A stretch of DNA of 30,518 bases from Bdellovibrionota bacterium (GCA_044356455.1 JBIKWF010000046.1:1-30518), one strand, 5' to 3'; numbered from the stretch's first letter, positions 2,407-24,438 are shown. Made by a program: numbers and translations. The notes: generated by a model from the letters alone, not told the origin.

Positions 2407-2521
2407 CTAGGAGTCTGTCCCGTAGAAACATAAATCTTCATTTCGGACACAATCCGTAGGTGGGCTGTCCCGCTGCCACCACAGCATGTAGTGGTGAGAT
2501 TTCTACGGGACAGACTCCTAG
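2407..2521. mobile_element. MITE-like element: perfect terminal inverted repeats flanked by CTAG
   Basis: CTAGGAGTCTGTCCCGTAGAAA (2407-2428) is the exact reverse complement of TTTCTACGGGACAGACTCCTAG (2500-2521). The interior is non-coding, and the element lies between convergent genes. Confidence 0.7.
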
Positions 2522-2550
2522 CCTCGCTATAGGAAGTTAAAGGGGTGTTT

Positions 2551-10958: not shown

Positions 10959-11906
10959 TCAGTCGTCGAGCTTGAGCACCTGCCGAAACACCGCTCCCGC
11001 CACTTGGTAACGATCGTATTGCTCAGACCGAAGTTGCATCAGCTCGTCAGAATTGGCGCACGAGAGAGCCTCGCTCAAAGCTTTCTCTGCTGCCCGCGCA
11101 CTGGGAGAGTGTGGGTCGGCCAGAGCTCTGAGAGGGGCTATGCCAGCCATTTTTAGTCGAAGACTTGCCAACGCGACTTCGAGCCAGGAGGGAACGCTGA
11201 AGTTGAAGTGCACCGAGAATGATTCTTCGCTTGCCTCGGTGGCGTGCCAAACACCTCTTGGCACAAACATAAAATCCCCCGGCTTAAGCTCGACCGGCTT
11301 CGCTTTTGCATAATAGTCGGTAGGCGGAGTGTTATTCCAATAGGTAGAAAGCTCCTCTGGTACATACGGAAGCTCGGAGAGCGAGTAGTGTTCGAGGGGA
11401 TACTCTGCCGTTTCATTCTGAAGTAGAAACCATTTCTTCCTGCCGCGAAGTTGCAGCACGAAATTTAGGTAGGCATCAAAGTGTGGTGAAACGCCGCTTC
11501 CTTTGGCAGATAGATATCCGATCGCTTTGCCAAACGTTCCGGAGGGGACTGTGAGCTCAGAGGTGAGTGTCTCTAAAACCTCGCGCACCCCGGGCACGAA
11601 CATGTCAAGGCAGTCGAATTCAAGCGTAGCGCCCTCGCGGTAGAGCTCGAGGGCGCGTTTGGGTAGCACCGAAACCCGATCTGCGAGGCCCTCTGTTTCG
11701 CGGATGGCAATCGTTCCTAACACCATGATTGGCGAGCGGTACTTCGCGACAAGCGCGGAGACGCTTTGTAAATCGTTGTTTTCGGGCAGTGGAGAGAAGC
11801 GTTCGACTGGACCATGGGTGATGAGGGGCTCCCTCTCCCAATGCTTGTCGCGGAAGGCTTGCACACTAAGATTTCCCAGTAGCTTTTCTAAAACTGTGCG
11901 CGACAT
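10959..11906 (-). CDS. JmjC/cupin Fe(II)/2-oxoglutarate oxygenase (YcfD/ROX-like)
   Basis: HFD...NFVLQLRGRKKW (HxD) and LKPGDFMFVPRGVWH (distal His); FRDKHWEREPL N-terminus. ATG at 11906 with AGGGAG RBS. Confidence 0.9.
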   Translation of the reverse strand: MSRTVLEKLLGNLSVQAFRDKHWEREPLITHGPVERFSPLPENNDLQSVSALVAKYRSPIMVLGTIAIRETEGLADRVSVLPKRALELYREGATLEFDCLDMFVPGVREVLETLTSELTVPSGTFGKAIGYLSAKGSGVSPHFDAYLNFVLQLRGRKKWFLLQNETAEYPLEHYSLSELPYVPEELSTYWNNTPPTDYYAKAKPVELKPGDFMFVPRGVWHATEASEESFSVHFNFSVPSWLEVALASLRLKMAGIAPLRALADPHSPSARAAEKALSEALSCANSDELMQLRSEQYDRYQVAGAVFRQVLKLDD

Positions 11907-11920
11907 AGCGTGCTCCCTAA

Positions 11921-13891
11921 TCAAACAAAAGTAGTGATTTCTGATTCAGTTTCGGTATGCAGATTCTTATCGAGGGAAGAATTCGAAAAAGAGCCAAGGG
12001 TAAAAGCATCCGGCTCACTCTTCTCCGATGCAATGAGGCAATCACGCGCGAAGTCCATAGAGGGGGGCCTCCCCCACTCTCTCAAGCGCGAACTCTGGTC
12101 GAGATTGCCCATGTTCACCAGGCGTATCAGGGCAAAGCTTGAGGCAGGGTCAGAGTCAATCCCCGCCATCAGAGAATTGAGAGACTCCAAATTGACGAAG
12201 TCCCGACCACTCGAGCCAATTGGAAATGCGCGCTCAAGGAGTGCATGCGAATCCATGCGAAGTAGATTCGCCATCATGCGTTCGGTGTAGCGCAGACCTG
12301 GTCCGTAAAAGAAAGGCACCTTTTCACGCGACGTTACTGCGCTTGGCAAGAGAGTTCCCATCGCTGCGCGAAGGATCCGCTTATCCCAGAAGAGTCGAGG
12401 CCGGAGGCTTGGGGGAACACCGAGGCAGAGCTCCACGAGGCGATGATCAAGAAACGGCGTTCGGCCCTCTATGCCAAAGTGGCTGGTCAGGCGATCCTCG
12501 TGCCAGAGATTGAAAACTTCCAAGTCATGCAGCTTGCTCAACTGATAAAACTGCCAAGCGTCCAGCGGCATCGGGCCATGGTCCCGGGGGGAGAGCTCCC
12601 TAATGAGACCTGGAAACTGCTCCCAGGGCGCGAAAGCGCCACCAGCCGCACGGTGCCGGGTGTTCTCGGCGATTGATTCCAGTCCGAGTAGAGCTCCTTC
12701 CCAAGAGTCGTCAAATATCGAGGCGAGCAAGCGGGTATATCCACCATTACATTCATCACTTCCCTGTCCGCTCAGCATTACCCGCAGCGAGGGACGCGCT
12801 GCTTTAGCAGACCGAAGGAGCATGTATTTGAATAGTTGCTCGGGGCCGCAGCTTGGGTTCTCCGTCAGGTGCAGGAGGGCCAGCCATAACTGCGGGTTAA
12901 TCAGCGGGTCAGAGGCGTCGATCCGAACTTGATAGTTCTTTACACCAACTGCGCGTGCAACGTCGCGAGCTCCAACTGCGTCACCGTTAAGCGCAGTGCT
13001 CTGGGTAAGTACGGTGAATGAATCGAAAGAATGCCCACGGCCGCGCCCGATTGCAGCAATTGATGCGGAATCAATACCGCCACTCAGCATCAGCGCGGGC
13101 TCCGAAGAGCTCTCGAACGCCTCGTCGCACGCCGAGCTGAGAATCTCGCGATAGTGCTCGATCCAGGCCTCCTCCTCCGTTTCCTCGGCTGACCGAGGCT
13201 CAGGAATCGCCCAATAGCGTCCAAACGAGAGACTTGTCCCACGCGCGCTTGCCTGAACGTAGCCACCGGGCTGCACGCTCTCGATGCCGCAAAAAAACGA
13301 ACCAGCGGGGCGTGCACTAAAAACTAAGTCCTCGCTAAACCAAGGTTCAGCGAGCGCCGATTCCCAGTCGAATTTCGCCGGGCACCGAGGGCACATCAAG
13401 AGTGCCTTCAGTTCGGAGGCAAAAAAGAGGCTCTCTCCGTCGTAGTGATAAAAAAGCGGCTTGATGCCAAATCGGTCGCGCGCGAGGGTCAGCACGCCTC
13501 TACGCCGGTCCCAAATCGCGCAAGAAAACATCCCTCGCAAGTCAGCAAACGCTTGAGCCCCCTTGTCTTCGAACAGATGCAAAAGCACCTCAGCATCCGA
13601 AGTTCCCTTGAACACATGCGCGCACAGTTCGCGGCGAAGCTCGCGGTGATTATAAATTTCTCCGTTGACTATTGCTACGAGTGCACCATCCTCACTGATC
13701 AAAGGTTGCTGGCCATTGGCGCCGCCTACGATAGACAAACGCTGAAACGCCAGCGAGATTGACTCATCACTGAAATGACTACCAGTGTCAGGCCCGCGGT
13801 GTTGCAGGTGCTGGGCCATTCGCTCGGTTAGCGCATCCCGCTCAGCCCGGACCAGTGCGCCTTTGGTAAAAATGCCCGCTAGTCCGCACAC
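11921..13891 (-). CDS. asnB: Asparagine synthetase B-like glutamine amidotransferase
   Basis: GTG start at 13891 gives MCGLAG (N-terminal nucleophile Cys). Motifs HRGPD, RLSI, NGEIYN, RDRFGIKPLFY, LSGGIDS, SGQGSDE..GGY and RTPFLD. Confidence 0.92.
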   Translation of the reverse strand: MCGLAGIFTKGALVRAERDALTERMAQHLQHRGPDTGSHFSDESISLAFQRLSIVGGANGQQPLISEDGALVAIVNGEIYNHRELRRELCAHVFKGTSDAEVLLHLFEDKGAQAFADLRGMFSCAIWDRRRGVLTLARDRFGIKPLFYHYDGESLFFASELKALLMCPRCPAKFDWESALAEPWFSEDLVFSARPAGSFFCGIESVQPGGYVQASARGTSLSFGRYWAIPEPRSAEETEEEAWIEHYREILSSACDEAFESSSEPALMLSGGIDSASIAAIGRGRGHSFDSFTVLTQSTALNGDAVGARDVARAVGVKNYQVRIDASDPLINPQLWLALLHLTENPSCGPEQLFKYMLLRSAKAARPSLRVMLSGQGSDECNGGYTRLLASIFDDSWEGALLGLESIAENTRHRAAGGAFAPWEQFPGLIRELSPRDHGPMPLDAWQFYQLSKLHDLEVFNLWHEDRLTSHFGIEGRTPFLDHRLVELCLGVPPSLRPRLFWDKRILRAAMGTLLPSAVTSREKVPFFYGPGLRYTERMMANLLRMDSHALLERAFPIGSSGRDFVNLESLNSLMAGIDSDPASSFALIRLVNMGNLDQSSRLREWGRPPSMDFARDCLIASEKSEPDAFTLGSFSNSSLDKNLHTETESEITTFV

Positions 13892-14622
13892 GGAATTTGC
13901 TCCCCGGTTGAGTCCTGTAGCTCCTTGCGCCAGTATGCAATCCATAGCGATTCAACACTTTGTTCTCCGCTCACGAGCGGCAGATCTGTCGGAAGGGAGT
14001 CCAGGCAGTTCACGAGGTCCTCTTCAGCAAAGCTAAATGGCTCTACCGTCATATTGGATAGCCCAGCAGCAGCGGCGTACTCGCGAACGGATTCCATGGA
14101 AAGACTCTCCTCCAGAGCCTCTTTGACGAACCTAAAAAGATGCGGCTCGGTGATGGATTTCGCGAGAAGCTCGCTCATTCTCGAAGCGACGCTCGCGATG
14201 GTATCAAGGAGAATAAGAGTGCCTCCTACTTTCAGAACTCTCCTGCATTCCCGAAGCGCTCGAACGGGATTCTCCCAATGGTGGAAGCAGGAGTACGACA
14301 CGACCAGGTCAAAGGTGCAGTCGGCAAAGGGCAGCGCATGCACGTCAGCCTCGCGCAAACTCCAGCGGCTTTCGGGAACCGAGGACAAGCGCGCGCGACT
14401 AAGTTCCAGCATGGTCTCGTTTATATCCACGCCGCAAATTTTTGCATCGGTGCGGGTAGCAAGCTCGAAGCTTAGATAGCCAGGGCCTGTCCCCAGATCA
14501 AGGATGTTCGATGCGGCCCCCACGTAGGTACGAGAGAGAAAGCTAGCAAGCAGCGCGTACAAGTAGCGCTGATGCCGCTCGACAAACTCCTCGTAGTGGA
14601 AGCAGTCGATTCTGCTTAGCAT
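13879..14622 (-). CDS. Class I SAM-dependent methyltransferase
   Basis: ILDLGTGPG (motif I), GVDIN, ADVHALPFADCTFDLVVS, RVLKVGG. Confidence 0.92.
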   Translation of the reverse strand: MLSRIDCFHYEEFVERHQRYLYALLASFLSRTYVGAASNILDLGTGPGYLSFELATRTDAKICGVDINETMLELSRARLSSVPESRWSLREADVHALPFADCTFDLVVSYSCFHHWENPVRALRECRRVLKVGGTLILLDTIASVASRMSELLAKSITEPHLFRFVKEALEESLSMESVREYAAAAGLSNMTVEPFSFAEEDLVNCLDSLPTDLPLVSGEQSVESLWIAYWRKELQDSTGEQIPCAD

Positions 14623-15104
14623 GGCTTAGCCCCCAAAGAATACTCGAGCTCCAGCTCGTCGCGGAGCGGGATGCCGTAATCGCCACTGCTTGGTATCCCA
14701 GGCTTAAGCAGACGCGATTGCTCAAGAGCATTCCGGTGAAGTGCGCGCAAGGTAAACCCTCGGCGCTGATAAAAACGCAGAGCGTCAACATTGTCGTTAG
14801 TGGTGACAAGCCACACGCGATTGCAGCGCTGACGTTGGGCGATCTCCACTAAGGACGCAAGCAATGCCGTGCCCACACCCTGGTGACGTGAATTGGCATT
14901 GAGGCTCACCACTTCGCACTCGCCATTTGCAATGTGGTAAGTCAGTAAGCCGACAAGGTTCGAATCTGTCTCGGCTACCAGAGCGGGGAGCTCGAGCGCA
15001 TTATGCACAACGCCACGTGACACAATCTGGGGCGTTCCCCAGGATTCCTCAAGGATAGAAGTTGCCGTGGCGCGGTCTCTTTGCTCTATCGGTCTAATAT
15101 TCAT
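14616..15104 (-). CDS. GNAT-family N-acetyltransferase
   Basis: RHQGVGTALL acetyl-CoA motif; TTNDNVDALRFYQRRGF. Confidence 0.92.
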   Translation of the reverse strand: MNIRPIEQRDRATATSILEESWGTPQIVSRGVVHNALELPALVAETDSNLVGLLTYHIANGECEVVSLNANSRHQGVGTALLASLVEIAQRQRCNRVWLVTTNDNVDALRFYQRRGFTLRALHRNALEQSRLLKPGIPSSGDYGIPLRDELELEYSLGAKPC

Positions 15105-15109
15105 AGGCG

Positions 15110-15892
15110 TTATCCTCTTAGTCTTCGTATCAGTGTCCCCCCATCGGGCGTAAGTTCAGCCCCTGTTAGCATCGCAGAGTCATCACTGAGAAAGAAGGCG
15201 ACGCAACGGGCAACATCGAGGGCGGTGGGGACTCGCCCTAAAGGCAAAGAGCCATACATTTCATCACGCACAAGGTCAGGCGAGGCGCCGAGCTGCTCTG
15301 CAAACTTTTCGATTACGACCTCGCCTAAGCGGGTGTTAAGAGTTCCCGGGTTTACGGTATTAACGCGAACCCCCCGGTCGGCAAGCTCGTCGGCGAGCGT
15401 GCGCGAAAGACTTCTTAGACCTGCGTTGGCGACGCCGGCGATGCCAAGTAACGCGGTTGGATCGACGCCTGCTGCCCCCGCAATATTCACTATTGAGCCT
15501 CCGTCGCGCGTGAGATGAGGCAAGACGCACTGAATTAGACTCAGCGTGCTGACCAGCTTTAGATGCAGATAAGACGCGAACTCCTCCAGGTCAGCGCTGT
15601 GCAGGTGCCCAACGCAAGCTTCGCCGGCGTTATTGACGAGGCCATAAATCGGGCCGAAGCGGCTCACTGATTGCGTAACGAAGTTGTTCCGGTCCTCGGC
15701 GCGTGTGATGTCCGCTCTTCTCGCGTGAAGAGAGTCGCTCTGAAGTCCCTCGCGCAGCACTCGGATGTCGCCCTCGGTGCGCGCGCATGTCGAAACCCTT
15801 GCGCCTTGGCTTAGCAGGAGTTCCACGGTCTGCCGACCGACCCCATGAGTTCCACCAGAAACAAGAATATGTGGGCTGTGTGGTATTGGCAT
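15110..15892 (-). CDS. Short-chain dehydrogenase/reductase-fold protein lacking the canonical YxxxK
   Basis: SGGTHGVG, VNNAG, GSIVNI, GVRVNTVNPG and PLGR motifs. AGVANAGL occupies the YxxxK position. ATG at 15892 lies 4 nt after the radical SAM stop. Confidence 0.88.
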   Translation of the reverse strand: MPIPHSPHILVSGGTHGVGRQTVELLLSQGARVSTCARTEGDIRVLREGLQSDSLHARRADITRAEDRNNFVTQSVSRFGPIYGLVNNAGEACVGHLHSADLEEFASYLHLKLVSTLSLIQCVLPHLTRDGGSIVNIAGAAGVDPTALLGIAGVANAGLRSLSRTLADELADRGVRVNTVNPGTLNTRLGEVVIEKFAEQLGASPDLVRDEMYGSLPLGRVPTALDVARCVAFFLSDDSAMLTGAELTPDGGTLIRRLRG

Positions 15893-15896
15893 AGAA

Positions 15897-17072
15897 CTAG
15901 AAGCACTTAGTGTGTGATTGAAGGTTTTCTCCGTAACAGACTTTGAGAAACTCAATAAGCGGGTCTAGCTCCCCGGCCTCAAAGTCCGCGGTCATTTCTC
16001 TATACACTCGTTTCAGATCCTCGCAGTGTCCTACAGGGCCATAGAGGTCTCCGGTATAGAATAGCGCCTGCGAGCGACACCCGCCCTTGCAGATGCCGCG
16101 ATACTCACAAGTTGAGCAGACCGTGAGCTTATCGGGCGTGAAAGAGAGGTGACGGGATTCCCTTTGGCGGCGCAGATAGGTCGCTTCGAAGTCTTCAGTG
16201 AAGACATTCCCAAGTCGAAATTCTGGAATTGAAGTGATAGCCCCACAGTAGTACGCCTCGCCCTTCGCATCGATCTCCCAAGTACGCCCCGACATAGGAG
16301 TGCAATAGGTGGAACATGGATTGCCCAGGCCAGAGAGAGAAATGACCATGCTCTCAATTAAATCGATGCTCATTTCCTCAAAGCGGGTTTTCTCGAAGCG
16401 ATAGAGCTGCGAGAGCACATCCTCGACACCCGCGCGAGTAAGGTCCTGGGTAACACCCGTCCGCTGTCCATAACTCGTCGACACGTGAGTAGTTTGAACC
16501 CCATGAGCGATTCCCCACTCAAGGACGTCCACTACCTTATTGTCGACCACGTTTGTAATCGGAACCGAGAGCGCAACTTTAACCCCGCTTTCCACCATGT
16601 TGTCGATGTTTCCCATGATGCGTGGTAGAAGAGGCAGCCCCCTCACCTTAGCATACGCAACCTCGTCGACCGTATCCATGCTTACCTGGACCGTAACATC
16701 GAGGCTTGCGAGTAGTTTCACGAGTTGGGGAGTACACCCCGTTCCGTTCGTTACCAAGTAGGTCTCGAAGCCGTAGTCCTCCACAGATGCCTTAAGAATC
16801 TCGGGCAGCTCTTTAACTATGGTGGGCTCCCCGCCGCTCACCAACATGACGCGAGTACCTGCGCGTTTAGCCATCTCGAAGATATGAATTATCTGGTCCA
16901 TAGAGAGCCGGTCGTGACTGCCCCGTGTGGCATTCATATAGCAGTAGGAGCAAGTCTGGTTGCAACGGGACGTAATTTGCAGCCACACAGATTTTGGGCC
17001 GCCAGAGCCAGTGAAAAGCCGCTCGTGGGATCTTCCGGCACGGCCGATTGAGACAATTTCAGCGCACGTCAT
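15897..17072 (-). CDS. Radical SAM enzyme with SPASM domain (peptide maturase type)
   Basis: CNQTCSYC (CxxxCxxC), SGGEP, VTNGT, VSMD; C-terminal C...YYC...LGNV...CSTCEYRGICKGGC...C SPASM cysteines. Confidence 0.93.
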   Translation of the reverse strand: MTCAEIVSIGRAGRSHERLFTGSGGPKSVWLQITSRCNQTCSYCYMNATRGSHDRLSMDQIIHIFEMAKRAGTRVMLVSGGEPTIVKELPEILKASVEDYGFETYLVTNGTGCTPQLVKLLASLDVTVQVSMDTVDEVAYAKVRGLPLLPRIMGNIDNMVESGVKVALSVPITNVVDNKVVDVLEWGIAHGVQTTHVSTSYGQRTGVTQDLTRAGVEDVLSQLYRFEKTRFEEMSIDLIESMVISLSGLGNPCSTYCTPMSGRTWEIDAKGEAYYCGAITSIPEFRLGNVFTEDFEATYLRRQRESRHLSFTPDKLTVCSTCEYRGICKGGCRSQALFYTGDLYGPVGHCEDLKRVYREMTADFEAGELDPLIEFLKVCYGENLQSHTKCF

Positions 17073-17091
17073 GTGAATTCCTCTCTGACTG

Positions 17092-17553
17092 TTAAGGCTG
17101 TAACAACGAAATCTGCGCCCGCTCGATGCCCTCTACATGCTCAATGCGCGCCATGAAGCCGCAGGCGCGCGCATGGGCCTCCGCCAAGGCTTTGGCGTAA
17201 GCAGCGAACTCTTCTAGGCTGATATCGAAATAAAAGAATACCTCCGGTAACTCTTCTGAAAACCACATCTTAGACTCAACGACCGCGGTTTCGCCGTGCC
17301 ACTTAACAGAAATTTCGTCGTAGATGAGCCCGCGGCCGCGCACGAACTCTTCAACAAACTGGATAAGCGGCTCAGCGTTGTCGGCAGCCCGTTCAGAGTA
17401 GTAGCCATGGCCTTCGAGCAGCTCGATCTGCCAATCCGCTAGGTCGTGGAGGCCCGAGTCGAGTGCTCGATTCCGCGCGATGACTACCGCCAGATGCCCG
17501 AGCATCCCGAGAGCCTGGTCCCTACTCCAGTGGGTGGTCCGTTGCTCGCTCAT
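17092..17553 (-). CDS. Hypothetical protein (153 aa) within the RiPP operon
   Basis: Start overlaps the RRE stop (TAATG); ends 19 nt before the radical SAM start; no family recognised. Confidence 0.85.
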   Translation of the reverse strand: MSEQRTTHWSRDQALGMLGHLAVVIARNRALDSGLHDLADWQIELLEGHGYYSERAADNAEPLIQFVEEFVRGRGLIYDEISVKWHGETAVVESKMWFSEELPEVFFYFDISLEEFAAYAKALAEAHARACGFMARIEHVEGIERAQISLLQP

Positions 17554-17828
17554 TAGTGTTGCTCAACGCGGGTAATGATGCGCTCTTTCTCCAGCTCGCG
17601 CGCAAGTTCCAGGCAGTCAGCGAGGCATGCCTCAGGAGTGGTGTCATAACTCGCGGCAACCTTTGCCGCGCCAGCGCGCACCGTGGTTTTCCCGTCGAGG
17701 GTTTGAAAAAAACTCGCCGCAGATTCATTCAACGCGAGTCCGGGCTCGATAACGATACCTTTTAGGTACTGGCGAAAAGGTCGCTCTGGATTGTGTTGGA
17801 AGATGAGCTCGGCTTCGTCTTGCGTCAT
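17553..17828 (-). CDS. Stand-alone PqqD-family RiPP recognition element (RRE), 91 aa
   Basis: ATG at 17828 with AAGGAG RBS. LNESAASFFQTLDGKTTV...AASYD...LADCLELARELEKERII fits the PqqD pattern. Confidence 0.88.
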   Translation of the reverse strand: MTQDEAELIFQHNPERPFRQYLKGIVIEPGLALNESAASFFQTLDGKTTVRAGAAKVAASYDTTPEACLADCLELARELEKERIITRVEQH

Positions 17829-17840
17829 GGGAAACTCCTT

Positions 17841-17875
17841 AAATAAAAGCCCCAAAGGCAAAATGCCCAAGGGGC
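17841..17875 (-). terminator. Hairpin plus U-rich tract between precursor and RRE (leaky terminator or mRNA stabiliser)
   Basis: Minus strand GCCCCTTGGGCA-TTT-TGCCTTTGGGGC followed by TTTTATTT. Confidence 0.6.
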
Positions 17876-17890
17876 AAACCTATTTAAAAC

Positions 17891-17959
17891 TTAATGTCCA
17901 CCAGCCGCGTATACGCGACGGAGACGATACAACTTAGGCTTCATGTATTTCGCTTTCAT
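17891..17959 (-). CDS. Putative RiPP precursor peptide MKAKYMKPKLYRLRRVYAAGGH (22 aa)
   Basis: Translated by hand: AAGGAGGAACC-ATG AAA GCG AAA TAC ATG AAG CCT AAG TTG ... GGT GGA CAT TAA. Contains a YxxPxL motif and is the first ORF of the RRE/radical SAM operon. Confidence 0.88.
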   Translation of the reverse strand: MKAKYMKPKLYRLRRVYAAGGH

Positions 17960-18001: not shown

Positions 18002-18280
18002 AAAGGCGCAATCGCCAAAACTGCTCGACTGCCCGAGAAATCCAAGCATATCGATTTGGTTGCAGCCAACGCAGAAAGACCGAAGAGGATTCAGAATTGG
18101 TGGCGAGGAGTCTGTCTCCTAGAAAATTCTTAACACTAGATGCTGTGGTGGCAGCGGGACAGCCTACCTACGGATTGTGACCAAAATAAAGATCCTCTTT
18201 CTACGGAACACACTCCTAGTTGAATTGTCTTCGGAATCCTTTGCTGGCGATGGCAAGAGAGAAAGTGCCATAGCTTTGCC

Positions 18281-19009
18281 ATGATTTCCCGAGATAAAAA
18301 GCCCGAGCGTGAAACCCGGCGATGCGCAGAGCCGAATGCGTGGATGTCAGAGTTGTCGCTTGGCCACAACTGCGATTCATGCGATTTCCTTTTGAATCAA
18401 CGACAGAGTAAGCCGAATCGGATTCGGCGCTCGGCAGCTGATGAGCTGCACGCTCCCCAGATGGAAGGTGACGACGACCGATTTGAAAAGCGCGAACAAG
18501 AAAGAGCCCGCGACAAAATGCAGCACCGCGAGGGCCGCAATCAGGGATTTCGTTGCGTGAACTCAGCCTGCCGGTCGTGGGTGCCGCTTCATGATCTGAT
18601 GGGCACTAAGAACCGTAATCACTGCCCGTGCTGTCTTGCCTCAAAGCATGTTGACGAGAAAACCGGGGATCGGAGCGCGGAGTGTGGCTCGCGAATGGAC
18701 GCAATCGCTTTAACGACAAAAAAAGAAAGACAGAACCGATATGCTGAGGAACACGAAAGTCGCGGAGAGCTCATGTTGGTGCATGAGTGTTCCGGTTGCG
18801 GATTCCATCGCATAAACCGCATTGCTGCCGACGATAACGATTATGTGATTCTTAGAGTCTTTGAGCAGTCCTTGAGAATGCCCGAATTACAGCGCTTGCG
18901 CCTTCTAGAGAAAGGGATCGCGTTACTCGGACCGGGCGATTTGGACCTTGTTCGATCACAGTTTGTTGTAGATGAAGGAAAGCCATGGAACCAAAACGAG
19001 AAGACATAA
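18281..19009 (+). CDS. RNHCP domain-containing protein (start uncertain, may be downstream)
   Basis: FRCVNSAC...RNHCPCCLASKHVD...GDR...CG.RM...LVHECSGCG...NRIAADDN. Confidence 0.88.
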   Translation: MISRDKKPERETRRCAEPNAWMSELSLGHNCDSCDFLLNQRQSKPNRIRRSAADELHAPQMEGDDDRFEKREQERARDKMQHREGRNQGFRCVNSACRSWVPLHDLMGTKNRNHCPCCLASKHVDEKTGDRSAECGSRMDAIALTTKKERQNRYAEEHESRGELMLVHECSGCGFHRINRIAADDNDYVILRVFEQSLRMPELQRLRLLEKGIALLGPGDLDLVRSQFVVDEGKPWNQNEKT

Positions 19010-20943: not shown

Positions 20944-23900
20944 ATGTACGTCTTTGACACCTGGGGAAAATGCATGCAAACAAAAATACTACTGACACTC
21001 TTGCTTGGCTCTGCTTTTTTCTCCGGCATTGACAGCCATGCAGCACCGCAAGTCCTGGGGGAAAAGGGCTATCCTACCCCATCATTTGACCCTCTTAAGC
21101 TCAGTGAGCCGCTACCGCCTCAGCAACGAAGATATTTCATTGAATGCAACAATCGCCAGCAGTACCGCGGTGGTCTTGACGGCGCGGTGCAGGTAGCAGT
21201 CACGCTTCAAGCGACTGGATCAAAAGTTCAAATTCGCAGGCCATTCCGCGGAACACTTTTTTGCGGGGCTTCGGTGCTTGGTTCGATAGAACCAACCAGT
21301 CGCCAAGAACTCGAAAATCTTGGCTTTTCCGTCACAGAGGTGAAGAGAATCCGTGCACTCCTTGAGGAGTCTGTTCCGATCCTCGGCATTTCTGAAATAG
21401 TAGATACAGAACTAGGAAACAACAGACCCGCAACTGGCCACGGCATCAGCATCGGGGTAGTCGATTCAGGTACCGACTATAGCCATCCGTCATTGGGTTC
21501 TTGTACACAATCTGAGTTTCTCTCTGGTCGCTGCAGCACGGTGCGTGGTGGATACGATTTTGTAAACAATGACCGGGATCCCATGGACGATAACGGGCAT
21601 GGGACTCATGTGGCAGCGATAGCTGCGGGACGTGGGCCACGTGGGCAAGGAGTTGCTACAGGGGCAGAGCTATATTCACTGAAGGTTCTTGGGGCCGCGG
21701 GTTATGGTTTCGAGGATGACATCATCGCCGCACTTGAATGGGCTCTCGATCCGAATGGCGATGGAGATGCTAGTGATCATATTGATATTGTCAATTTAAG
21801 TCTTGGAAGCTCCGGCTATCCAGGAGCGGAAGGTGGTCCCCTTCCTCGAGCCGCGAACCGACTTTCAGAGTTGGGAGTTCTTGTGGTTGCCGCAGCCGGG
21901 AACGCTGGCGGTAACCAAAACAACAGCACGGTGGGCTGCCCCGCATGCGCCTCGCAAGTGCTTGCTGTTGCCGCTTCGAACAAGGAAAAACTCATCCAAA
22001 ATACTGATATAGCCAACTTTAGCTCCTGGGGTCCTTTCGAATCCTCTCAGGGATTTGTCGGAAAACCGGAACTTACTGCACCTGGTGCTAGAATTTGTGC
22101 CGCTCGGGCGAACGGTACCTCTTCTGACTACCCTGCCTGCCGAGACGACCTTGGACGAATTGCGCTATCGGGCACTTCAATGGCTAGCCCTCATGTCGCA
22201 GGAGCTGCGGCAATTCTCATGGAACTATTCCCTCGCTATACGACCAAGGAAATTCGACAACAGTTAATGAATCTTGCTCGACCGCTTCCCCGCACCTCAG
22301 CGAATCAATCAGGACTCGGAGTCATTGGCCTTGCTGGCCTTAGCACAACGTCGAAAGCGCCTCCGACTATCGACCTCGAAGCAATTTCTCTAGCTACAAG
22401 TGAGGGGCGAGCGACTCTCCGGGCAATCGTGCATGCTCGCCATGGCGTCAAACGAATCGACTTGGCAGCGGCTCCAAGCAGCGCAGGCGATCTGATGAGA
22501 GCAATAGTTTTTCGGGAAATTGAAGTCCCAGGAGCGCCCCGCACCTATTCTCTTGAGGAGCAGCTCGCGCTTCCTCAAGCTTTCGAGTCACCTCAAACTA
22601 TCCTAGTTTCCGTTACTGATCTCGAAGGCACAACAAGCAGAGCCTGGACACAACTTCGTACGGTCAGTGGCAAATTTGTAGTCCCGGAATTATTTGAAAC
22701 TATCGCTGCGAATACTCCTTACGAAGTTATCTTGGGCAATAATGGTCCGCCTATTCCAACTACTTTCTCATTGCGAAACCCGCTGACTGAGCGGACTACC
22801 GGCACCCTCAATCCCATGACTCTGCTAAAAACATCGATTTATGAATTGATTGCACGCCAAACTATGGGTCAGTATTCACGGGTAGTCTCAACTTTTGTGG
22901 AGAGTGATGAGAACCTGCGCTTCGGCTCGCCAATTCAGGCACTCACGCAACCGCAACTAGTAGTTGGAAAATCTGCATTTACGGTAACAGAGTCTAACGC
23001 CCGGTCTGAACCAAACTCTTTGATTACCATAGCCGCTAGATGCGATGAGTACCCATACATGTGCTCACTCGAACTCTCGTCATTACGCCCTTCTGGACAA
23101 GTTAATTGGTCAACAGAAATCGGTGGCACACCAAACGACATTCTTCCGCCACCTATTGAATTCAAAGACTCTTCTCGGAATATTATCTTTACTCTGTCGG
23201 AGTGCAGTGAATACTTCGGTTGTCGCCTGATAGGAGTAGATCGAGCGACAGGACAGTATGTTCCCGGCTGGTCTGGCTCCAGTAGGTTAGGTCTCGATGT
23301 AACTGCGAAGCCCACAATTCATCTAGTGCCGAACGGCAACGGCAGCGACTTTCAGATGGTTGTGTTCGCCCGCTATTTGATAGGATCCTTCTACGGCGAA
23401 ACACCATATCGTGTATCGGTTTTCAACTCATCAGGGCAGCTCGTCAGGCAGTGGTCTCCCGAGGGTGATACCGACCCCTTATTTGAGATAGGTAACACAA
23501 TCGCTACACCAGCCTTTGGTAACTTCGACCAAGACTCGGACATGGAAATAGCATTTCTCATTGCGGCACCAGGATATGTCCCAGGCCGGGATGAAAGAAG
23601 TTCACTTCAAGTGTATAATCTTGATGGTACCAGATTGAGTGGTTGGCCGCGGCAAATTTCAGGCACTTATATTTCGTCAAACGTAATCGCAGCGGATTTA
23701 AACCGCGATGGTCGAGACGAAATAATTGCTCAGACAGGTTGCGGGGCGAACCGCAGCGCCGATTGCGAGTCTGTGTTCGCCTTCATGGGCGACTCAAGCA
23801 TTCTACCAGGTTGGCCTTCACGTATACAGGTCGAAGGGCGTCGAGCTAATTTCTCTGAATTACGTTCACTCGCCGCAGCAGACGTAGACCAAGACGGCTC

Positions 23901-24438
23901 GCTAGAAGTCTTAGCTTGCTTCGAAGCCCACGGTTGTACTCTCCTAGACCGAAACGGAAAAGTATTCAAAAATTCGCCAAAATGGCCTTATGTCCTAGAG
24001 GATCTTCGGGGAATTCTATCTCACGGTCGAGGTGGCCCTTTCCTTCTCGATTTCGATGGGGATGGCTCTTTGGAAATTGCCATCATAGGAGTGGAGGGAG
24101 CAGATGACGTATCTCTCGGCGAGCCCTTTGGTTATAGGCAACGCTGGAAGCTGCGAGTGCTCTCGAACCTAGGACAGCGCCGGCTGGACTTGGAGCAGTA
24201 CTTAAACGAGGGAGCTTTGCCCGATGCTCTCTACGGACGTTGGGCCTTTGGCGATTGGAATGGTGATAGTTTTCTTGAACTGCACTTTGGCGACCGGCCA
24301 CCCAGTCACCTCAATCAACCTGGCCACTCGAGAAGGTCAGGTCACTATGTCCGAGACCTAACTAGAAAGATTCCAAGATCAAGACTTCGCTGGAATGGTA
24401 ATGGCGGAGACCAGCGCAAACTTAATCGTGCCGAGTAG
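20944..24438 (+). CDS. Secreted subtilisin-like S8 serine protease with C-terminal FG-GAP/VCBS-like repeats
   Basis: Catalytic motifs VVDSG, HGTHVAAIAAG, AAAGN and GTSMASPHVAG; signal peptide; ADLNRDGRDEI, ADVDQDGSLEV and DFDGDGSLEI repeats. Confidence 0.93.
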   Translation: MYVFDTWGKCMQTKILLTLLLGSAFFSGIDSHAAPQVLGEKGYPTPSFDPLKLSEPLPPQQRRYFIECNNRQQYRGGLDGAVQVAVTLQATGSKVQIRRPFRGTLFCGASVLGSIEPTSRQELENLGFSVTEVKRIRALLEESVPILGISEIVDTELGNNRPATGHGISIGVVDSGTDYSHPSLGSCTQSEFLSGRCSTVRGGYDFVNNDRDPMDDNGHGTHVAAIAAGRGPRGQGVATGAELYSLKVLGAAGYGFEDDIIAALEWALDPNGDGDASDHIDIVNLSLGSSGYPGAEGGPLPRAANRLSELGVLVVAAAGNAGGNQNNSTVGCPACASQVLAVAASNKEKLIQNTDIANFSSWGPFESSQGFVGKPELTAPGARICAARANGTSSDYPACRDDLGRIALSGTSMASPHVAGAAAILMELFPRYTTKEIRQQLMNLARPLPRTSANQSGLGVIGLAGLSTTSKAPPTIDLEAISLATSEGRATLRAIVHARHGVKRIDLAAAPSSAGDLMRAIVFREIEVPGAPRTYSLEEQLALPQAFESPQTILVSVTDLEGTTSRAWTQLRTVSGKFVVPELFETIAANTPYEVILGNNGPPIPTTFSLRNPLTERTTGTLNPMTLLKTSIYELIARQTMGQYSRVVSTFVESDENLRFGSPIQALTQPQLVVGKSAFTVTESNARSEPNSLITIAARCDEYPYMCSLELSSLRPSGQVNWSTEIGGTPNDILPPPIEFKDSSRNIIFTLSECSEYFGCRLIGVDRATGQYVPGWSGSSRLGLDVTAKPTIHLVPNGNGSDFQMVVFARYLIGSFYGETPYRVSVFNSSGQLVRQWSPEGDTDPLFEIGNTIATPAFGNFDQDSDMEIAFLIAAPGYVPGRDERSSLQVYNLDGTRLSGWPRQISGTYISSNVIAADLNRDGRDEIIAQTGCGANRSADCESVFAFMGDSSILPGWPSRIQVEGRRANFSELRSLAAADVDQDGSLEVLACFEAHGCTLLDRNGKVFKNSPKWPYVLEDLRGILSHGRGGPFLLDFDGDGSLEIAIIGVEGADDVSLGEPFGYRQRWKLRVLSNLGQRRLDLEQYLNEGALPDALYGRWAFGDWNGDSFLELHFGDRPPSHLNQPGHSRRSGHYVRDLTRKIPRSRLRWNGNGGDQRKLNRAE

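Follow-up and report, generated by a model that had tools for sequence, protein, structure and literature searches.

The asnH operon of Bacillus subtilis, one of the closest described counterparts of the locus considered here, switches on at the transition to stationary phase. A 2010 report by Morinaga is said, going by its title, to deal with a '5'-proximal long sequence triplication' and with RNA stabilization in this operon. The gene list given in an excerpt of PMC9319509 runs yxbB-yxbA-yxnB-asnH-yxaM, and no precursor peptide was reported for the operon in the literature searched. The B. subtilis protein YxbC was placed by Iyer et al. in the NO66/YcfD clade (PMC2938197); it is called putative or uncharacterized where it is mentioned, as in an excerpt of PMC11575548, which also names it as the top structural homologue of CzlI. 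JmjC hydroxylases are known in RiPP pathways, BipG (PMC12707348) and CzlI (PMC11575548) being described as such in excerpts of these papers, and a survey of RREs reported that bacterial homologues of RRE-fused JmjC proteins sit in RiPP-like contexts (PMC12710340).

The window analyzed here is the whole of a 30,518-nucleotide stretch from a Bdellovibrionota bacterium (GCA_044356455.1 JBIKWF010000046.1:1-30518). It carries a gene cluster that overlaps in content with the asnH operon and includes, at its 5' end, a very small ORF for which a precursor role had been predicted. The features concerned are the following.

17970-17964, minus strand: Shine-Dalgarno sequence AAGGAGG, found by direct reading, with a 4-nt spacer to the ATG
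17959..17891, minus strand: putative precursor peptide gene, 22 amino acids, MKAKYMKPKLYRLRRVYAAGGH, from translation and homologues
17841..17875, minus strand: hairpin in the gap from peptide stop to RRE start, with a GCCCC..GGGGC stem and an inner stem, then UUUUAUUU
17553..17828, minus strand: discrete PqqD-family RRE, 91 amino acids (PF05402, 4.2e-10, above the cut-off)
17092..17553, minus strand: X153, a protein of 153 amino acids that accompanies the peptide and the RRE in all four loci described below
15897..17072, minus strand: radical SAM/SPASM enzyme, 391 amino acids (PF04055, 5.9e-23)
15110..15892, minus strand: SDR oxidoreductase (adh_short_C2, 3.2e-40), directly 3' of the radical SAM gene
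14616..15104, minus strand: GNAT acetyltransferase (PF00583, 6.7e-16)
13879..14622, minus strand: class I SAM methyltransferase of the UbiE/Methyltransf_11 type (Pfam)
11921..13891, minus strand: glutamine-hydrolyzing amidotransferase of the asparagine-synthetase type, AsnB (TIGR01536, 336.9 against a cut-off of 267.1)
10959..11924, minus strand: JmjC_2/cupin Fe(II)/2-oxoglutarate oxygenase (PF08007, 6.9e-16)

The original prediction, made from the sequence of the window, rested on the AAGGAGG motif 4 nt before the ATG and on a stop codon 62 nt before the RRE gene. Both are seen by direct reading of the minus strand: the ORF 17959..17891 translates as MKAKYMKPKLYRLRRVYAAGGH*, and the gap between the end of its stop at 17891 and the RRE ATG at 17828 is exactly 62 nt. 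Translation also bears out that the window peptide lacks Cys, Ser, Thr, Asp and Glu altogether, so lasso, thioether and lanthionine chemistry remain excluded, as first stated. The ORF matched no family in Pfam or NCBIfam, and among 5.8 billion predicted proteins (22-70 amino acids were considered) none contained three 5-residue words of the 40-residue frame in which the peptide lies. The ORF is identical in two lake-metagenome runs (X2 and X11) whose contigs span it; a look for RNA runs containing the stretch returned none. Taken with the homologues described next, these results confirm that the peptide gene is real and unannotated; it is of precursor type and most likely belongs to an uncharacterized, RiPP-like, RRE-dependent pathway.

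The prediction further implied that similar short ORFs should lie near orthologous RRE genes, and homologous ORFs of 22-23 amino acids are indeed present in all four loci that could be read, namely the window, a metagenome contig (L085), G228 and G1268. These four stand against about 22 radical SAM homologues and 35 X153 representatives in protein collections, and they hold five gene copies with four distinct sequences, G1268 counting twice. L085 has a 23-residue ORF, MQKKKYVQAKVYRLRRAVMAGGH, with a Shine-Dalgarno site, directly 5' of the RRE, X153 and radical SAM genes. A scan based on Shine-Dalgarno sites found MKTYVKPKMFKVRRAVVAGGHRV in G228, directly 3' of the methyltransferase gene. G1268 contains two tandem copies, both encoding MKKEYKKPRAFELRRAVIAGGH; they form an 87-nt repeat, lie 120 nt apart, differ by a single synonymous substitution, and were seen in a separate repeat search, not being reported by TRF. 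Shine-Dalgarno-like sites precede the ORFs in L085, G228 and G1268 alike. The gene orders of the four loci are as follows.

Window: peptide, RRE, X153, radical SAM, SDR, GNAT, methyltransferase, AsnB, JmjC
L085: methyltransferase, peptide, RRE, X153, radical SAM, SDR, JmjC, AsnB, GNAT, with an M1 peptidase gene upstream
G228, one operon: JmjC, RRE, radical SAM, SDR
G228, opposite operon: RRE, PhyH oxygenase, FabH-like, methyltransferase, peptide, RRE, X153, UbiA-like, M1 peptidase
G1268: JmjC, divergent from two peptide genes, methyltransferase, RRE, X153, AsnB, MFS

When the window peptide was compared by blastp-short with 1147 six-frame stop-to-stop segments (96,877 amino acids) from the L085, L166 and L167 loci, the two small ORFs came out on top, with E values of 8.5e-6 and 1.2e-5, the next segment having an E value of 0.74. 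The corresponding tblastn search of the G1268 locus returned the two copies at 1.8e-5 each. Across the five copies Y5, R14, R15, A19, G20, G21 and H22 are invariant. The window and L085 peptides share 14 identical residues, 8 of which are encoded by different synonymous codons, and the G+C content of the three clusters that bear a radical SAM gene is 0.554, 0.71 and 0.614, that of the 20-kb G1268 locus 0.385. Judged from this comparison, the gene is conserved in four distant genomes and selection acts on the amino-acid sequence of the peptide, its last four residues included, across a G+C range of 0.385-0.71.

Conservation and the modeled interface described below together lead us to propose that residues 1-15, ending in the invariant Arg-Arg, are the leader and that residues 16-22, ending in the invariant AGGH, are the core, with the consensus [A/V]-x-x-A-G-G-H. 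The C-terminal part had been named as the core from the outset, and the conserved AGGH behaves like one. The chemistry first suggested for it held up in part. Position 17 is Tyr in the window and Val in all other loci, so that a Tyr17-His22 crosslink cannot define the family and was rejected as its common chemistry. Strictly C-terminal, MftC-like chemistry is not general either, since His22 is followed by Arg-Val in G228 and is thus not the terminal residue there. Finally, because G1268 keeps the peptide and shows no radical SAM match in 20 kb, the conserved AGGH is not simply readable as the radical SAM site.

The RRE of the window passes the Pfam threshold and reaches none of the NCBIfam cut-offs for PqqD or lasso PqqD proteins (PqqD 17.3 against 46 bits). 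Its complex with the peptide was modeled from a 4-row RRE alignment and the 40-residue frame, 18 residues of which are untranslated and were included to satisfy a modeling minimum of 30 residues. The three scores were 0.61, 0.61 and 0.59 against 0.12 for the best control, for a frame of 40 residues and a kind of complex already represented among solved structures; of 157 solved complexes, 116 reach the mark used for such models, as do 2 of 215 mismatched pairs. Between runs, agreement in contacts was at least 96%, and the partner pLDDT was at least 54. The modeled interface takes in residues 2-13 of the peptide (20-31 in chain numbering), and the tightest contacts run from P8, K9, L10, Y11 and R12 to RRE residues 31-37 and 71-79, on a surface made up of strand residues 30-37 and helix residues 71-82. 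Outside the interface lie the untranslated part and residues 14-22, leaving the Arg-Arg pair and the AGGH end free. Solved RRE-leader complexes exist in the PDB, so the score may reflect likeness to these and is no proof of binding.

The model is in line with the earlier view that the N-terminal part is the recognition sequence, given that residues 2-13 are the ones predicted to dock. The YxxPxL motif invoked for that purpose survives in a looser form. Its Tyr is invariant and a Y-x-x-P-x-hydrophobic pattern is present, but Pro8, found in three of the four distinct sequences, is Ala in L085, and position 10 may be L, V, M or A.

The hairpin that follows the peptide stop in the window was terminator-like in a scan, with a predicted folding energy of -25.1 kcal/mol and a z score of -2.38. 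L085 (z -3.57) and G228 (z -1.52) likewise have a stem-loop 3' of the peptide stop; in the latter a 15-bp hairpin comes directly after the ORF, followed by the third PqqD paralogue and the X153 homologue. The window hairpin is probably terminator- or attenuator-like, and it may tune expression even if the peptide is a substrate.

The radical SAM enzyme is well defined in its motifs and poorly covered by curated models. Its best NCBIfam scores are about 75-79 bits, with cut-offs of 231-650, none of which is reached, and PqqE (6c8v) is its only full-length PDB match (E 3.4e-11). All 20 homologues compared keep the CX3CX2C motif and seven C-terminal cysteines that mark SPASM radical SAM peptide maturases (C37, C41, C44, C257, C276, C319, C322, C328, C332 and C350), and because the motif begins at residue 37 there is no room for an RRE of its own. 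Among 5.8 billion proteins, 12 close homologues (61-84% identity, the window's own protein excluded) and 10 distant ones (27-37%) were found. The SDR gene next to it is open from 15955, the ATG at 15892 probably being the likelier start, and the two genes are adjacent in L085 and G228 as well.

X153, whose homologues occur in L085, G228 and G1268, matched nothing in Pfam or NCBIfam and has 35 representatives among 1.84 billion proteins. Its AF2 model has a pLDDT of 92.6; Foldseek returned no match at E<=0.001, the Atlas only hypothetical proteins, and VIA-align gave Z values of 5-6.5 to Bet3/TRAPP, BcsD, YslB and H-NOX, a level ranked as common. Several representatives are X153-GNAT fusions of 314-345 amino acids (P0028, P0036, P0040, P0042, P0043, P0046, P0055 and P0059). 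A C-terminal GNAT domain was present in all eight representatives longer than 300 amino acids, these being eight of the 12 proteins scanned, and the fusions tie X153 to an acetyltransferase step. The separate GNAT protein of the window bears a weak likeness to HaaN, a RiPP acetyltransferase (28.9 bits, cut-off 250).

The remaining enzymes are of recognizable families. L085, G228 and G1268 all have a methyltransferase homologue, the one in G1268 at 44% identity (E 1e-59). The AsnB homologue consists of GATase and Asn_synthase domains; a likely GTG start at 13891 would give M-Cys-Gly, and both the glutaminase domain and the N-terminal Cys are kept. Against the lasso cyclase model NF033535 it scores 182.1, the cut-off being 525. 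The JmjC protein is a homologue of B. subtilis YxbC (PDB 7zcc/1vrb, E 2.5e-74, residues 6-317 aligned), with further PDB matches to NO66 histidyl hydroxylases (3e-9) and the arginine hydroxylase YcfD (7e-6). By family search, no dedicated leader peptidase or exporter was recognizable in the window operon, and Pfam revealed no transglutaminase-type family among the nine cluster proteins. An S8 subtilase with FG-GAP repeats (1164 amino acids) is encoded 3 kb away, at 20944-24438, and has no counterpart in the other three loci; as a speculation, it could serve as a leader peptidase acting after Arg-Arg. Divergent from the peptide gene, at 18281-19009, is a gene for an RNHCP-domain protein, also absent from the other three loci.

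Comparison of gene content separates a constant set from a variable one. The peptide, RRE, X153, methyltransferase and YxbC-type JmjC genes are present in all four loci, and the order peptide, RRE, X153 is kept in three. AsnB occurs in three of four, as does the pair of radical SAM and SDR genes, which are always adjacent. No AsnB gene lies within 55 kb in G228, and no match to the radical SAM, SDR or GNAT proteins was found in the 20 kb of G1268, where the PqqD-type RRE has 86, X153 164 and AsnB 741 amino acids; these absences indicate that the pathway varies. The position of the peptide gene relative to the radical SAM gene is not fixed, the former lying after the methyltransferase gene in G228, in the operon opposite the latter, and the JmjC, AsnB, methyltransferase and GNAT genes are linked to the peptide at least as tightly as the radical SAM gene is. 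Since G1268 does without radical SAM and SDR genes, the pair looks like an add-on to an older system.

Two of the loci have further features of their own. The G228 cluster (L166 12424-14344 and L167 1142-1399) contains three PqqD-type RRE paralogues, together with a PhyH dioxygenase, a FabH-like ketosynthase, a UbiA-type prenyltransferase and an M1 peptidase, and these extra genes suggest that its product is a lipidated or prenylated variant. Just past the JmjC gene of G1268 are IS66-family transposase genes (L170 7680-8935), and on this flank the cluster may therefore be either incomplete or mobile.

The distribution of the cluster is sparse wherever it was sought. Scans of genome and metagenome contigs relied on generic radical SAM motifs. 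Alignment of the radical SAM enzyme left 80 genome loci, all at or below 33% identity and none orthologous, and 80 metagenome loci, among which L085, at 64% identity to the window enzyme, was the only orthologue. The enzyme was not found in the 60 closest relatives, 123 other genomes of the phylum, 5 further entries and plasmids, and it was found in one of 201 genomes (G228) sampled around a locus labeled Rhizomicrobium, in the family of G061. A search of 401 genomes of a Bacillales-type order with the window JmjC protein turned up G1268 and no other, as did a second sample of that order, which drew the same genomes again; an identical protein is labeled Anoxybacillus mongoliensis. X153 was not found in 5+5 entries or in 401 sampled genomes each of the phylum of G328 and the class of G061. 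In the phylum of the window, 124 genomes yielded this one cluster.

This patchiness (1/124, 1/201 and 1/401) suggests horizontal spread, and the window cluster (10959-17959) looks horizontally acquired. Homologues of the radical SAM enzyme belong to phyla that are not related and differ strongly in G+C content. Roughly 150 nt upstream of the peptide ATG lies one copy of a dispersed repeat of about 88 bp (18106-18193; another is at 2434-2523, minus strand), for which 41 copies of 77-100% identity, the query among them, were counted among the matches listed in its own genome (138 first-look candidates, 40 scored). The repeat has no Rfam or tRNA match, and lake-metagenome depth jumps to about 130-390 across it, with loose ends on both sides.

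We consider the ORF to encode a putative translated precursor, the substrate of an RRE-dependent peptide-modification pathway, with a probability of roughly 0.7. Its basic N-terminal part (about K2-L13, with Y5, P8 and the aromatic residue at position 11) would bind the RRE as a strand, and the RRE would present the free C-terminal part to the enzymes, the invariant Arg14-Arg15 marking the presumed junction between leader and the core [A/V]-x-x-A-G-G-H. The JmjC oxygenase, a member of the NO66/YcfD clade of ribosomal oxygenases, probably hydroxylates His22 or an Arg, these being the likely sites because its characterized relatives hydroxylate His or Arg, and the methyltransferase would add a methyl group. 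The glutamine-dependent AsnB homologue may amidate the C-terminus. Amidation is the simplest role for it, given that the C-terminus is the only carboxylate of the peptide and that the enzyme retains a glutaminase domain and scores below the lasso-cyclase cut-off; the absence of AsnB from G228, where Arg-Val follows the His, fits this reading, as a single case. The GNAT protein, possibly with X153, would cap an amine, and in the version found in the window a further oxidative or crosslinking step may come from the SPASM radical SAM enzyme together with the SDR encoded next to it. Removal of the leader by a peptidase would then yield a small peptide that is capped and contains His; two of the four loci have a gene for an M1 peptidase next to them. 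How much precursor mRNA is made relative to enzyme mRNA is probably governed by the hairpin 3' of the stop.

It has to be asked whether the ORF might instead be a cis-acting leader peptide, whose translation, together with the hairpin and U-run, does nothing but regulate or stabilize the operon mRNA. In the window, L085 and G1268 the ORF does open the operon at its 5' end, hairpins come directly 3' of its stop, and a role in RNA stabilization is reported, in a title, for the 5' region of the asnH operon. Yet the ORF lies inside an operon in G228, after the methyltransferase gene, and G1268 has identical tandem copies. Selection acts on the amino acids themselves, the last four among them, at G+C contents from 0.385 to 0.71, and a peptide-binding RRE, on which the peptide docks in the model, is always present. 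We regard a purely regulatory ORF as quite improbable; the regulatory and substrate roles are compatible with each other. Further down the scale is a chance open frame without a product. It draws on a length below the size thresholds of gene callers and on the failure of every family model to match, but conservation, synonymous substitutions, Shine-Dalgarno sites and duplication rule out a chance ORF for practical purposes.

A different question is how much of the cluster belongs to the peptide. The precursor might be the substrate of the RRE, X153, methyltransferase, JmjC and AsnB proteins alone, with the SPASM radical SAM enzyme and SDR acting elsewhere, on another peptide or a small molecule, and simply co-located. 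In its favor, G1268 carries the peptide and the other genes without the pair, and in G228 the radical SAM gene is in the opposite operon with an RRE paralogue of its own. Against this, the pair is inside the cluster in all three loci that have it, directly follows peptide, RRE and X153 in one operon in the window and L085, and has no second candidate precursor in view in the window, L085 or G228 loci; moreover, the radical SAM enzyme lacks its own RRE and resembles PqqE and MftC in needing a discrete one. Mere co-location of the pair is thus unlikely, and the preferred reading keeps the radical SAM and SDR step within the pathway of the peptide.

The link to the asnH operon extends from single proteins to gene order. 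G1268 has methyltransferase, RRE, X153, AsnB and MFS genes in the published order, with the JmjC gene divergent like yxbC. PF05402 also matches the B. subtilis control genome, and from this match, the gene order and the protein sizes, YxbA would be the RRE and YxnB would be X153. The window shares the YxbC-type JmjC protein and, MFS excepted, the same genes in another order, the difference being that radical SAM, SDR and GNAT genes were not found in the Bacillales-type locus G1268. Without the radical SAM enzyme, the pathway seems to be present in Bacillus-type asnH operons as well. We found no paper describing such a system, most subscription journals being outside the scope of the search.

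From here one may venture, tentatively and at somewhat less than even odds, that the peptide family is the missing substrate of the asnH operon and the triplication a set of three tandem precursor genes, and that together they represent a new RiPP class with a modified A-G-G-His end (hydroxylated, methylated and amidated), which some lineages, that of the window included, would extend by new chemistry in a SPASM radical SAM/SDR step. Should the connection to B. subtilis be true, the pathway is testable in a model organism. The peptide is a defined 22-residue substrate candidate for several orphan enzymes at once, namely a SPASM radical SAM subfamily that scores below every curated model, the YxbC oxygenase, which has a solved structure and no function, AsnH, and X153. 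The AGGH end and the invariant Arg-Arg also make a simple search pattern for members missed by gene callers. No curated model covers the peptide, X153 or the radical SAM enzyme.

Other known systems resemble the cluster in part. BipG of biphenomycin, CzlI of curacozole and NO66/MINA53/YcfD belong to the same JmjC/cupin family as the window oxygenase; NO66 and YcfD hydroxylate His and Arg, both invariant in the window peptide family, whereas the BipG and CzlI pathways have other precursors and other partner enzymes. Triceptides (including HaaB) and dynobactin are crosslinked RiPPs in which aromatic or His residues take part and a short motif is the target of a SPASM radical SAM enzyme (reviewed in PMC11002830). 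The window shares the SPASM enzyme and has a weakly HaaN-like GNAT, but the scores are low (DynA 73 against 450, WgkB 75 against 650) and the aromatic residue beside the core, Tyr17, is not conserved.

In the PQQ system (PqqA, PqqD and PqqE), too, the precursor has about 22 amino acids, the PqqD-family chaperone is a discrete protein and the SPASM radical SAM enzyme carries no RRE itself. The system differs in its Glu/Tyr pair, the window peptide having no Glu, and in PqqB and PqqC, for which there are no counterparts; the models score 17.3 against 46 bits for PqqD and 75.5 against 381.35 for PqqE. Mycofactocin (MftA, MftB and MftC) likewise combines a short precursor, whose core is C-terminal, with a discrete RRE and a SPASM radical SAM enzyme, and an SDR is a neighbor there too. 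Here the core is AGGH instead of Val-Tyr, the window peptide ends in Gly-His, the His is not always C-terminal, and MftD, MftE and MftF are missing from the cluster; TIGR03962 reaches 74.9 of the 265 required, and the model for mycofactocin-coupled SDRs 106 of 300. Orthology to either system was rejected.

Lasso peptides (A, B1, B2 and C) have as hallmarks an Asp or Glu acceptor at core position 7-9 and a penultimate leader Thr. The likeness lies in the Y-x-x-P-x-L-like leader, the discrete, B1-like RRE of the PqqD type and the asparagine-synthetase homologue. The window peptide has neither the Asp/Glu acceptor nor a Thr ahead of the core, a B2 of the transglutaminase type was not detected, and AsnB passes the model for true asparagine synthases and keeps its glutaminase domain. 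The lasso reading was rejected on these grounds (NF033535 182.1 against 525, no Asp, Glu or Thr, no B2). The peptide does answer, in all four loci, to the general description of an RRE-dependent RiPP precursor, a short and conserved ORF beside an RRE and enzymes.
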